Of a DNA stretch of 64,000 nucleotides, positions 56,077 to 59,515 are shown one piece after another. The notes under the pieces are model-generated. The model saw nothing but the letters and a program-made list of their open reading frames with translations. It was not told where the DNA came from and made no database searches. Source of the DNA: Thermoplasmata archaeon (GTDB taxonomy: Archaea; Thermoplasmatota; Thermoplasmata; Lutacidiplasmatales; UBA184); the NCBI GenBank assembly GCA_030041175.1, contig JASHOK010000055.1, positions 4,171 through 68,170 on the forward strand. The letters are read 5' to 3'. Within the stretch, counting starts at the first letter, position 1. Every line of letters begins with the position of its first letter. The translations under genes and the position numbers were made by a program.

Positions 56077-58389
56077 TCACGCCAGCCCTTCCGGCCACTC
56101 TTCGAGGCGGTGCTGGTCGAGGGCCTCCGGGGAACGGTACCGGCTGGGCACCCGGTCCGCCCGCACGCCCCAGCGGGCGAGGAGCGTCGCGCGACGCACG
56201 CCCATGGGTGCGAGGAGCGTCTCCGCCGACCGGGCCAGCAGCTCCAGGTACGCGTCGGGGTCGTACGTCTCCTGACCCGTCAGCGCCTCGGCCACGACCA
56301 CGCGGTCCCGCCAGGAGCGAGCCGTCCGGTCCGCGACCAGATAGCGGACCGTTTCCCCGGGAGCGCGTACGATACCGTGATGGGCCAGCTGGCGGAGCGC
56401 TGCCACCGAATCGCTGAACGTCACGTAGGCGCCGAGTTCCTGGACGATCCGACGGGAGATCAGCAGCTCCTCGCGCGGCCAGTGACCGTCCCGGATGCGC
56501 TCGGCGAAAGCGTCGGCCCGGGCCAGCGCCCGCGGGACGGAGGCCCGGAACTCGTCCGCGTTCCGGGCGCGGCCGAACAGCTGCAGCACCTCCGCTTCGA
56601 ACCGGCGCAGCAGGATGGGGGTGTCGTGGCGGCGGGAGCCGATCCCGCGGAGCTTGAACTCTCCCGTAGAGTAGAGGCCATAGTACCGGTTCGGCACGCC
56701 GAGGCCGTGCGTCACCGCCGGCAGAAACACGATCCAGCGGTACCGACCCTCGTAGCCGAGCGGCAGGTCGAACTCGCGGCTCATCGTCTCGGCGAAGCGC
56801 TCCGGATCCGGCGGATGCGCGGGGTCGGTCGGCCGGACCCACAGCGAGTCGACGATCCCGTGGATCACCTGGTATCCGTACTCCTCGGCCCGATGCAGGA
56901 GACCAGCCAGGAGCTCGCGGGCGTAGGCGTTGATCGATTCGTGACACTCGATCCGGCCGAATCGGGCGTTCCGGTACCCCTGGTAGCCGAAGGCGGTGAC
57001 GAGGATCCACTTGAGCATCTTCACCCGGCGCTGCAGGACCTCCCGCTCCGTCGGGGAGAGGCCCCGCTGCCGGAGTTGCGCCTTGTACGCGAGGCGGCGG
57101 ACGAGGAGCGGTTCGAGCGTCCGGGGAATGAGGCCGACCCGTCGGTCACACGACCGGTACCCCAGACCGGGCGCCCGTCGCCGGGCCGACGGACAGCACC
57201 GGCAGTCGAGCGTCTCGGCCGAGAGGTTCTGCCGGACCATGATGTGCGGATAGAGGCTCGCGAAATCGAACTCGTCGACGTGGTCGTGGACGCCGACCGG
57301 GGGCAGGAAGATCACGCCGCCGCGGTCCCCGTCGAGCAGTTTCCGGCCGGACTTCCACGCCTCGGGCCGGTTCTTCTTCCACGGAATGTGCACGCCATCC
57401 TCCCGGGCATGCGCCATCTCCATCGCCGTGAAGCAGGTGCCCGGGGACTGCCGGGCCACGGTCTGGAGTGATAGCCGGGAGAGGCGGGCCGCCTCGACGA
57501 GCCCGGGCACGGAGGCATCGCCCCAGAGGAACGAGTTCCCCCGGTCGACGTGGAACCGACCCGGCAGCAGGAACGCCGCCTCCCGATGCCGGATCTGCCC
57601 GTACGTCTGGTACGAGAACGCCTCCCGGTACGGCCGGAACCGGCCCGGCTCCCGGCCCAGGAAGAAGGTCGCTTCGGTGAAGCCGGCGGCCTGGGCACGT
57701 CGGTAGAGCCACGGAATGTCGCCTCCGTCCCCGCCGTCGGTCAGCAGGAGGTCCGGATCCTGCCGGACGACCTCGTCCCGGACCTCGGCGAGGAGCGCCT
57801 CCTCCGGACCCTCGAGCGTCACCTCCCCGACCCGGACCGCCGCGATCGGTTCGGTACCGCGGATGAATCCCTCCCGCTGACATCCCTGCAGCTCGACCTC
57901 GAGCGCCGCGCCGGACAACGGCGGCAGGTCGTAGTGGATCGTCTCCGCCGGCTCGAGCGCGACAACGGCGTCGGCGCTCCACCGGATCGGCGCGAACGGG
58001 TAGAGCTGGTGCTCGAGGTGGTAGAGATGCGGCGGCGTGAGGTCGACGTCGTAGAGGTGGAACCGCGTGTATCCGCCCCGAGCATCGATCGTCGTGGCGA
58101 GGCGTCGGCGGTCCGGGTTCCGCCGCGGAACCACTCCGAGCACCCGCCGGGGCCTCCGGTCGTAGAGCGATGGCCGAAGGACCTCGAAGCCCGTCGACGC
58201 GACCCGCGGGTCGTTCGCCAGCTCCCGGGCCAGAGAGTCCAGGTCGGCGCGAGGGCCGTCGACCCAGAACGGCGGGAGGAACGGTTCCACGCGTCGGGAG
58301 ACCGCGCCCCGGACGCCGTCCTTCAGCCAGAGGACGACCGAGACGCCGTCGCGTCCGTCGGTGATGTCGAGTAGCCAGCCTTCCGCCAT
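56077..58389 (-). CDS. polB: B-family DNA polymerase homolog with divergent catalytic motifs (possibly attenuated or inactivated PolB paralog)
   Basis: Motif A [11 protein letters not shown]. Motif B-like [12 protein letters not shown]. Motif C reads HGIVDS instead of YGDTDS. Exo I-like region YDVD instead of FDIE. 770 aa. Confidence 0.75.
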   Translation of the reverse strand: [770 protein letters not shown]

Positions 58390-58685
58390 CGTCGTGCCCT
58401 CCGGGTGGGTCTACCGCTCGGTGCCGCCGACGCACGGTCAGAGGTTCCCGGGGTCGCCGTTGTCTCCGTCCGTGTGCGCAGGTCGAGGAGAATCGACAGG
58501 AAGATCGTCTCCGTGAGGTCCGGCGTGCCGCCGTACGTGGACTGCGGGATGTACCGGCGCACCGAGGTACGGAGGTCCTCGAGTGCCGCACGCTCCTGCG
58601 GCGTGGGCAGGAGCGCCGCGAACCGGTCCCACCGCTTCAGCCGTTCCTCGAGTGCCTGCCGGTAGGTGGGAGCGGTGCGGCCCAT
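58323..58685 (-). CDS. hypothetical small protein
   Basis: 120-aa ORF between the RadA-like gene and polB; its 3' end overlaps the polB start by 67 nt. No domain recognised. Confidence 0.35.
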   Translation of the reverse strand: MGRTAPTYRQALEERLKRWDRFAALLPTPQERAALEDLRTSVRRYIPQSTYGGTPDLTETIFLSILLDLRTRTETTATPGTSDRASAAPSGRPTRRARRWRKAGYSTSPTDATASRSSSG

Positions 58686-59515
58686 GGGTTCACCTCCTCG
58701 GTCGCGTCGGCGGGAGCGAACTCTTCCAGGCCCCGCTGACCGGGCGGCCGATACACCATCAGCAGCCGTCGACCCTCGCGGACCGACCCGAGCTCGACAC
58801 CGACTGGTCGGGGGATCAGACGGATTAGGTCGGAGAACCGGGGACCGGCCTCCGAGAGCCCCGGGAAGGCCACGAGTCCGCCCGCCACCGTCAGCAGCAG
58901 CGGAAGGCCGGTGCCCTCGACGAGGTCGGCGAGCCGTTCCGACACGTACCGCAGCAATGGCTCGCGTTCCTCGGGGGGAAGTTCTTCCGGATTGTCGAAC
59001 AGCGTCGGCAGTTCGTGCCCGATGAGTAGCGTCGGGCGGTGACGGCGGGCCTCGGCCGACCAGCCATCCACCAGGGCGACCAGTTGGTAGGCCGTGAATG
59101 CCCGGGCGAGGTGGATCCCGTCGAGGACCGGGTCGGGTTCGAGTCCCAGCGCCTGCCCCTGTTCGACGATGCGGTAGGGATTGAATCGGTTCGCACCCTC
59201 GACCAGCGAGATTCGGCCGTGGGCAAGCGCGTTCCCGGCGTACAGCAACTCCAGTAGCCGGTCGATGGCGTACGGGGCGCCGGTCCAGACTGTGGCCTCA
59301 CCGGGAGCAAACCGTCGTCCGAGCCAGCCGAACAACGCCGGCGCTTCGGGGAGCACCCGCCGGGCCGGGAGCCGGCGGCGGAACCGCACCGGCACCTGCG
59401 GTCGGGGCCCGGCCGGTCCGGCCGGGGCCGGCGTCGACCCCGGAGCCGGCACTAGGTCCGGGACCGCCCACTCCGAATGGCCCACGGCGAGCGTGGCCGC
59501 CACTCCTCGAGACAC
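58637..59515 (-). CDS. RecA/RadA-superfamily protein with a degenerate (deleted) Walker A P-loop
   Basis: GRISLVEGANRFNPYRIVEQGQALGLEPDPVLDGIHLARAFTAYQLVALVDG aligns with the RadA core block vYIDTEgtFrPeRi...gld...vLdNI.yARAy.s.hQ. Where GxxGSGKT is expected, the sequence reads TVWTGAPYA. Codon GC3 bias supports coding. Confidence 0.55.
   Translation of the reverse strand: MSRGVAATLAVGHSEWAVPDLVPAPGSTPAPAGPAGPRPQVPVRFRRRLPARRVLPEAPALFGWLGRRFAPGEATVWTGAPYAIDRLLELLYAGNALAHGRISLVEGANRFNPYRIVEQGQALGLEPDPVLDGIHLARAFTAYQLVALVDGWSAEARRHRPTLLIGHELPTLFDNPEELPPEEREPLLRYVSERLADLVEGTGLPLLLTVAGGLVAFPGLSEAGPRFSDLIRLIPRPVGVELGSVREGRRLLMVYRPPGQRGLEEFAPADATEEVNPWAAPLPPTGRHSRNG

Follow-up and report, generated by a model that had tools for sequence, protein, structure and literature searches.

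Examination of a 64,000-nucleotide (nt) window of DNA from an uncultured Thermoplasmata archaeon identified a group of three overlapping open reading frames (ORFs) that represents, at a probability of about 85%, a chromosomal copy of the archaeal PolB2 'mutasome' operon, of class 1a, in a GC-rich Thermoplasmata archaeon. All coordinates are window positions, and all features of the operon and of the genes 3' of it are on the minus strand. The genes, in the order iRadA, PPB2, PolB2, were an iRadA gene (58637-59515; 292 amino acids [aa], GTG start), assigned from the ORF call and Rad51/RadA matches; a PPB2 gene (58323-58685; 120 aa, ATG start; arCOG07300/DUF8156), assigned from homologues labelled PF26485; and a gene for the family-B DNA polymerase PolB2 (56077-58389; 770 aa, ATG start), assigned from a DNA_pol_B match. 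An initial annotation of this DNA had described three overlapping minus-strand genes in a tight unit, and its coordinates proved exact.

The three-gene arrangement is already known and is not new. The initial annotation had been aware of no described operonic pairing of a degenerate PolB with a degenerate RadA paralogue, a claim overtaken by the literature, as the PolB2 operon arrangement was reportedly described by Makarova and Koonin in 2013. Makarova et al. (2014, PMC4104785) predicted that an 'inactivated' PolB2 shares an operon with a RadA-family ATPase, likewise inactivated, and with the small alpha-helical arCOG07300 protein, found this operon to be spread over archaea and some bacteria and proposed that it regulates replication or the processing of stalled forks. 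The names iRadA and PPB2 for the partners come from Timinskas et al. (2025, PMC11791011), who classed the gene orders (1a being iRadA-PPB2-PolB2) and modelled a PolB2:iRadA:PPB2x3 heteropentamer. The supplementary table of the latter paper contains PolB2 entries from Thermoplasmata metagenome-assembled genomes with a clade-specific string that ends in HGIVDSLW, the class '1a (iRadA-PPB2-PolB2)', the motif IVD, a DUF72 neighbour and the iRadA motif QRGMEEFG, and hence this clade had already been catalogued.

Conservation of the locus was examined in a survey that used one genome per GTDB species, in which a relative was encoded in 277 genomes and 80 loci were retrieved. The polymerase and RadA-like genes did co-occur. 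An adjacent triad in the same order, with iRadA and PPB2 directly upstream of PolB2, was present in 71 of the 75 loci having enough upstream DNA; three of the other loci had insertions between the genes, and one was without iRadA and PPB2. The triad was also seen at the loci of distant homologues, where the middle gene was annotated as PF26485/DUF8156. At one locus (L080:3882-6167), a PolB2 homologue with 62% identity had no iRadA or PPB2 detected in the 3.9 kilobases (kb) upstream and may be a solitary or relocated copy.

Profile searches placed the polymerase firmly in family B. PolB2 matched Pfam PF00136 (DNA_pol_B) with an E value of 3e-18 and a Thermococcus PolB in the PDB with an E value of 6e-38 over aa 290-736, and 747 homologues were found. 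The best NCBIfam matches, both full-length and both models of 'type B DNA-directed DNA polymerase', were below threshold (NF004418, 413.8 bits against a cut-off of 692; NF004416, 362.2 against 516), and PolB2 of this locus therefore belongs to a divergent subgroup relative to those models. Motif positions were set by residue-level HMMER alignment to the KOD and Thermococcus polymerases, and invariance was judged on an alignment of 13 clade sequences, the clade being about 65% identical overall.

Motif A (PolA; DFASLYPH, aa 375-382, 57244-57267) aligned opposite DFRSLYPS of KOD and was intact, as the initial annotation had noted; the catalytic Asp375 was invariant and the steric-gate Tyr380 nearly so. 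Motif B (PolB; 56974-57021) aligned opposite KILANSxYG of KOD. It had been described as altered, which was borne out by replacement of the canonical Asn-Ser by Val-Thr, invariant in the clade, with retention of Lys460 and Gly468; the quoted string KILVTAFGY was wrong, since the motif reads KWILVTAFG. Motif C (PolC; aa 510-515, 56845-56862) read HGIVDS opposite YSDTDG of KOD, so that the reading HGIVDS stands and a canonical motif C was not seen. This is an HxxxD form in place of YxDTD, in which the Tyr is replaced by His510 and the first Asp by Ile512, while the metal-ligand Asp514 is retained. The altered form was clade-wide, with H510, G511, V513, D514 and S515 invariant in the 13 members and position 512 occupied by I or L. 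The KxY-equivalent R568-Y569 was also conserved in this clade.

Features specific to the PolB2 family were present as well. The D(K/R) loop motif, defined in PMC8764526 and again in PMC11791011, was found as GDRGG (Asp355-Arg356; 57316-57330) with D355, R356, G357 and G358 invariant, and the distance from this motif to motif C was 157 aa, compared to 148 aa in Sulfolobus islandicus (253-DK, 401-IID). In PMC11791011, the element ahead of the D(K/R) motif is a beta-alpha loop that mimics the oligomerisation motif of Rad51/RadA and serves as the binding site for iRadA. A corresponding element, PEAWKSG (57346-57366), has the form [FW]K[ST][GA] and resembles the FxxA motif of Rad51/RadA; the pattern PEE[FW]KS[GA] was conserved in the clade 7 residues ahead of the DR motif, a placement that agrees with that paper, and by analogy this loop would contact iRadA.

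Two other features of PolB2 were observed. A cluster of four invariant cysteines, CRCCP...GYRSC (C396, C398, C399 and C414), was present at aa 396-414 (57148-57204); C399 and C414 align with the positions of Cys428 and Cys442 of KOD, and the two additional cysteines could make a metal site. At the C terminus, a PCNA-box-like sequence, QHRLEEWP (56092-56115), had an invariant Q759 and L762. Its aromatic position was present only in the window and in its closest relative (L007), while 58 of the 68 other loci had QxxL only.

The exonuclease domain was examined with KOD residues 1-423, which were checked against PDB chains (100% identity) and then aligned by MAFFT with 13 PolB2 sequences. At the Exo I position, EPAETI (aa 146-151, 57937-57954), D141 of KOD was replaced by Pro147 and E143 corresponded to Glu149. 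In the Exo II region (57703-57738), Asn210 of KOD was replaced by Gly219 and Asp215 corresponded to Asp224. In Exo III, where the alignment was uncertain, Y311 of KOD was replaced by Phe287 and D291 was retained. Furthermore, about 50 residues present in KOD between Exo II and Exo III were absent. A PDB profile search with the PolB2 alignment gave a match that did not reach the Exo I region. The loss of the Exo I Asp and the shortened domain leave the polymerase with no intact proofreading site. The initial annotation had put forward a DVD as the Exo I-like element. This candidate was rejected, as the sequence YDVDL (aa 113-117) was opposite YEYDI of the KOD N-terminal domain (KOD D113) in the MAFFT alignment, with Exo I being EPAETI. 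Judged from these residues, the proofreading site of PolB2 appears to be degraded, not erased.

The changes in the motifs raised the question of whether the operon encodes a catalytically dead structural or regulatory complex, in which the polymerase and a RadA paralogue serve as scaffolds for replication, origin use or fork processing. Such a complex would be consistent with replacement of the motif C Tyr and first Asp by His510 and Ile512, with the Val-Thr of motif B, with the Exo I Asp-to-Pro change and with the loss of the Walker A and Walker B residues from iRadA (see below), and it corresponds to the view of the initial annotation and to that held in the literature from 2008 to 2014, including the proposal of regulation of replication or of stalled forks by Makarova et al. 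(PMC4104785). Several lines of evidence point the other way. Feng et al. (PMC8764526) purified Dpo2, the PolB2 of S. islandicus, and found robust polymerase activity, no exonuclease activity and extension both of mismatches and of termini opposite lesions. This enzyme has the same form of PolC, HxxxD, which that paper gives as the PolC motif of PolB2, and was as active as the replicase in nucleotide incorporation. The residues Asp375, Asp514, Lys460, Tyr380 (nearly invariant) and R568-Y569 have been kept in a clade of only about 65% identity, and a scaffold would not need them. No orc1/cdc6 gene was found near the operon in the window. The biochemistry of Dpo2 and the invariance of the catalytic residues thus disfavour a dead complex, which we consider unlikely. 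The initial annotation had spoken of two apparently non-enzymatic derivatives of replication and recombination proteins; the loss of ATP-binding residues from the RadA-like protein is supported, but the description as non-enzymatic is probably wrong, given the Dpo2-like HxxxD of PolB2 and its invariant Asp375, Lys460 and Asp514. By analogy with Dpo2, the family-B polymerase of this locus is most likely catalytically active and deficient in proofreading.

The identity of iRadA was established from sequence and structure. The single sequence matched Pfam Rad51 with 22.8 bits, marginally over the cut-off of 22, and a RadA in the PDB with an E value of 8e-6, which improved to 6e-11 for a 17-sequence profile; 373 homologues were found. 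An AlphaFold model built on the same 17-sequence alignment had a core at about residues 51-255 (predicted local distance difference test [pLDDT] values of about 77-97) and a disordered region at residues 1-50. A Foldseek search of the PDB with this model gave the ATPase cores of RadA, RAD51 and DMC1 as the top matches (E values of about 1e-10, template modelling [TM] scores of up to 0.68, about 200 columns and about 20% identity). The RadA-core similarity reported in the initial annotation, including the string LDGIHLARAFTAYQLV (located at aa 131-146), was upheld by all three types of match and cannot be put down to chance.

Loss of the P-loop had also been predicted correctly. The Walker A position was occupied by TVWTGAPYA (aa 75-83, 59267-59293), with no GxxxxGK[ST]. 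In the model, strand 74-79 passed almost straight into helix 81-97, and hence the P-loop is shortened. The Walker B position, LLIGHE (59012-59029), had an invariant His167 in place of the Asp of RadA (LLIVDS). The N-terminal 50 residues were non-conserved, rich in Pro and Arg and of low confidence (pLDDT <50), and the structural matches were confined to the core; iRadA as modelled is without the N-terminal helical (helix-hairpin-helix) domain of RadA.

The C-terminal tail of iRadA contained a PCNA-box-like sequence, QRGLEEFA (aa 260-267, 58715-58738), of the form Qxx[LIM]xx[FY]. The tail box had the form QxG[LIM]EE[FY] in the iRadA alignment, in which Q260 and G262 were invariant, and iRadA had a Qxx[LIMV]xx[FYW] box in 61 of the 64 related loci. 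For iRadA of the same clade, QRGMEEFG is scored as a PCNA-binding motif in the supplementary table of PMC11791011, and the same paper notes that such motifs are commoner in iRadA than in PolB2 and rare in both together. Boxes with an aromatic residue in both PolB2 and iRadA were limited, among the related loci, to the window and its closest relative.

These properties of iRadA bear on a further explanation, namely, that iRadA is a recombination mediator acting on RadA filaments in the manner of a Rad51 paralogue (RadB or Rad55-57 type), with PolB2 extending D-loops. The retention of the RadA core fold is in keeping with this, as are the FxxA-like element of PolB2, a type of element that plugs into the oligomerisation pocket of Rad51/RadA, and the presence among the Foldseek matches of recent structures of RAD51-paralogue complexes capping filaments. 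Against this, iRadA is without both the ATPase residues and the N-terminal DNA-binding/oligomerisation domain, no radA or other recombination gene was found in the neighbourhood, and published modelling pairs PolB2 with iRadA and not with active RadA (ranking score of 0.28; PMC11791011). A mediator of this type is therefore very unlikely.

The 120-aa product of the middle gene, listed initially as an unknown, was identified as PPB2 (arCOG07300). A local Pfam scan of this protein gave no match, the PF26485 model being apparently missing from that copy of the database. PF26485 (DUF8156) labels the equivalent gene in every related locus and was carried by all but one of 112 PPB2 homologues. Comparison by hhalign with the Sulfolobales PPB2 given in the supplement of PMC11791011 indicated detectable homology (86% probability; E value of 5.4e-6; 71 columns from residue 1). 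The N-terminal arm, MGRTAPTYR (58659-58685), contained the MGRT motif with Arg3 and Arg9 for which PMC11791011 proposed a role, and this segment, including G2, R3, T4 and R9, was invariant in 23 aligned PPB2 sequences, the invariant N terminus being MGRTAPTYRQALEER. The conserved core of PPB2 (aa 1 to about 72-76, 58458-58685) consisted of three helices in the predicted model (residues 8-23, 29-49 and 55-76). A sigma-like fold of PPB2 was not reproduced in this analysis.

The core was followed by a disordered, low-complexity tail (aa 77-120, 58323-58457; pLDDT <50) that is specific to the subclade. PPB2 is typically 84 aa in length, and a form of 115 to 121 aa was found only in close relatives of the window. 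In this subclade, the usual PPB2 stop has been lost and the tail extends over the first 67 nt of PolB2.

The overlaps between the genes were examined for translation signals. The 3' end of iRadA overlapped the 5' end of PPB2 by 49 nt (58637-58685), and the PPB2 tail overlapped the start of PolB2 by 67 nt (58323-58389). Of 64 related loci, 63 had a first overlap of precisely this length (49 nt). A Shine-Dalgarno sequence for PPB2, GGAGGTGA (58690-58697), was located within iRadA codons E273-E274-V275, and this sequence preceded the PPB2 start by 4 to 5 nt in all of 79 loci. Shine-Dalgarno-like elements also preceded the iRadA start and the PolB2 start, that of PolB2 being GGAGGG (58397-58402) 5' of the ATG. 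The invariant overlap and the embedded Shine-Dalgarno site make it probable, from the nucleotide sequence, that the three genes form a translationally coupled operon. Furthermore, the PPB2 start codon overlaps the codon for the invariant Trp278 of iRadA. Conservation of 'EEVxxW' in the iRadA tail probably reflects a constraint at the nucleotide level, because the Shine-Dalgarno sequence occupies the Glu-Glu-Val codons and the PPB2 start lies on the Trp278 codon.

A programmed -1 frameshift fusing iRadA to PPB2 was considered, as no stop interrupts the PPB2 frame over 205 upstream codons and iRadA-PPB2 fusions occur elsewhere. This possibility was rejected: no X XXY YYZ slippery heptamer was present in the last 50 codons, and the strong internal Shine-Dalgarno site argues for separate initiation of PPB2. 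Upstream of the operon, a hairpin was observed on the minus strand (59576-59605) with a 10-base-pair stem, TTGAAACGCC-N10-GGCGTTTCAA, and no T-run after it, 19 nt past the stop of an upstream ornithine-cyclodeaminase-family gene and about 60 to 90 nt before the iRadA start. This hairpin could be a terminator-like or operator element. A search for structured RNAs in the region with Rfam matched only one tRNA (8015-8087).

Some defence systems include degenerate polymerases and proteins resembling ATPases. The initial annotation had included a defence-type module among its suggested roles, and an anti-virus defence or mobile-element function was therefore considered. PADLOC gave no support, having no match for iRadA or PPB2 and, for PolB2, a match only to the polymerase part of a homing-endonuclease (intein) model. 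The G+C content was about 65 to 73% and even throughout the window, including the PolB2 locus, so that the operon is uniform with its surroundings. Defence systems are distributed patchily, in islands; by contrast, the locus had the same chromosomal context in dozens of species. This stable synteny contradicts a role in defence, which is extremely improbable. As a separate observation, an intein (Intein_splicing and LAGLIDADG matches) was seen in the gene for the A subunit of the V-type ATPase close to PolB2 in one relative (L001:1-2428).

A further three genes were observed on the minus strand 3' of PolB2 (52268-55997). These encode a HEAT-repeat protein of 495 aa (54510-55997) that begins 79 nt after PolB2, a GNAT acetyltransferase of 315 aa (53566-54513) whose gene overlaps the HEAT gene by 4 nt and, after the GNAT gene, an uncharacterised ORF of up to 478 aa (52268-53704), the product of which had no Pfam, NCBIfam or PDB sequence match. 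In related species, a HEAT gene followed PolB2 at a distance of no more than 700 nt in 49 of 63 loci, a GNAT gene was downstream in 53 of 55 and a protein of the 478-aa type was encoded downstream in 52 of 55, so that conservation of the members of this trio is about 78 to 96% in these species. Analyses of PolB2 neighbourhoods in the literature do not report this association. The HEAT, GNAT and uncharacterised (about 430 to 478 aa) proteins could be partners in a six-gene unit with the PolB2 operon, for example in acetylation control or as a scaffold. This proposal is improbable; synteny upstream is also high, and the downstream linkage may therefore reflect lineage inertia and not function.

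On the upstream side, DUF72 genes, noted in PMC11791011 as belonging to the PolB2 neighbourhood, were found upstream in 66 of 86 related loci; in most relatives the gene directly preceded iRadA, in the same orientation. This place was filled, in the window and its closest relatives, by an ornithine cyclodeaminase/mu-crystallin gene (59624-60631).

The assignment to the class 1a operon was then weighed against the findings that do not favour it. No DUF72 gene was found within the 64-kb window or adjoining the operon, and no orc1/cdc6 or SRAP gene adjoined the operon in the window. Comparison by hhalign of the iRadA profile of the window with Sulfolobales iRadA was not significant (E value of 0.54). 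Three of the four exonuclease carboxylate positions (E149, D224 and D291) are apparently kept, so that the loss of exonuclease activity is a prediction and not a certainty. The activity data for PolB2 come solely from enzymes of the Sulfolobales, which are much shorter and very divergent. All of these points weigh against the assignment. In a relative (L008), however, a DUF72 gene was located about 5.6 kb upstream, at a spot equivalent to one past the window end, and DUF72 may lie just outside the window edge here. With regard to iRadA, direct sequence homology to the Sulfolobales protein was rejected on the basis of the hhalign result, and such a missing similarity is expected because the literature puts iRadA in three mutually unrecognisable arCOGs, which are held to be orthologous by gene context (Makarova et al. 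2014, PMC4104785).

The assignment to the PolB2 mutasome operon suggests how the three proteins may act together. Feng et al. (PMC7390963) found that Dpo2 of S. islandicus is induced by DNA damage and accounts by itself for targeted mutagenesis. By analogy with the Sulfolobus experiments and with published AlphaFold models, the operon would be induced by damage and its products would assemble in a 1:1:3 stoichiometry of PolB2, iRadA and PPB2. PolB2 would be the catalytic component, extending mismatched or lesion-opposed primer ends in translesion synthesis. PPB2, predicted elsewhere to be a trimer, would form a pillar with its MGRT arm inserted between PolB2 and iRadA near the DNA. iRadA would be a non-catalytic adaptor that docks on the Rad51-oligomerisation-like loop of PolB2 and tethers the complex to PCNA through the main box, the C-terminal Qxx[LIM]xx[FY] sequence. 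Damage tolerance, one of the roles offered in the initial annotation, is thus the best supported of those roles, by way of the Dpo2 data.

A new reading of this locus would have implied an archaeal counterpart of bacterial mutasomes, and this counterpart has already been recognised: in many archaea, PolB2 with iRadA and PPB2 is now considered the chief polymerase system for damage-induced mutagenesis and an analogue of Pol V in its architecture. The window serves as confirmation: nearly all members of a large clade of uncultured, GC-rich Thermoplasmata from soil and peat have the system, which is under strong constraint there. The additions made here are small and consist of the architecture of the overlaps and Shine-Dalgarno sites, the PPB2 tail, the dual PCNA-box-like motifs and the downstream block of HEAT, GNAT and uncharacterised genes.

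The published class 1a operon and the locus in the window have in common the three gene families, their order and close overlaps, the HxxxD motif (IVD), the D(K/R) motif, the MGRT arm, a RadA core without ATPase residues and a PCNA-box-like motif in iRadA. The locus in the window differs only in details: a 36-aa disordered PPB2 tail that overlaps PolB2 by 67 nt, the aromatic PCNA-box-like motif of PolB2 and the absence, inside the window, of DUF72, SRAP and orc1/cdc6 genes next to the operon. Dpo2 of S. islandicus and Sulfolobus solfataricus shares with PolB2 of the window the loss of the PolC Tyr and first Asp (IID there and IVD here), degraded exonuclease motifs and an operon with PPB2 and iRadA, in which PPB2 is detectably homologous. 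Dpo2 is, however, the smallest known PolB2 and most of its exonuclease domain is gone, whereas PolB2 of the window is larger, at 770 aa, with a partly conserved exonuclease-like domain. The gene order also differs, being PPB2-PolB2-iRadA (class 3a) in the Sulfolobales, the iRadA sequences are not recognisably alike, and the hosts are a euryarchaeon of 68% G+C content for the window and a low-GC crenarchaeon for Dpo2.

More distant systems have parts of the same organisation. The bacterial ImuA-ImuB-DnaE2 system has a dedicated RecA-like protein without normal recombinase function beside an error-prone polymerase, with a clamp tether provided by an accessory subunit. It is a non-homologous system, with a C-family polymerase, an inactive Y-family adaptor and no equivalent of PPB2. 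Eukaryotic Pol zeta (Rev3-Rev7) has the accessory subunits Rev7, Pol31 and Pol32, a canonical motif C and no RecA-family partner but is, like Dpo2, a family-B polymerase without proofreading that extends mismatched or lesion-opposed termini (PMC8764526). In the Escherichia coli Pol V mutasome (UmuD'2C-RecA-ATP), the polymerase is of the Y family, the RecA subunit is active cellular RecA from a filament instead of a dedicated inactivated paralogue and the accessory proteins are unrelated; nevertheless, Pol V and the PolB2 system are alike in combining a specialised polymerase with a small oligomeric accessory protein, one RecA-family subunit and clamp binding (PMC11791011).

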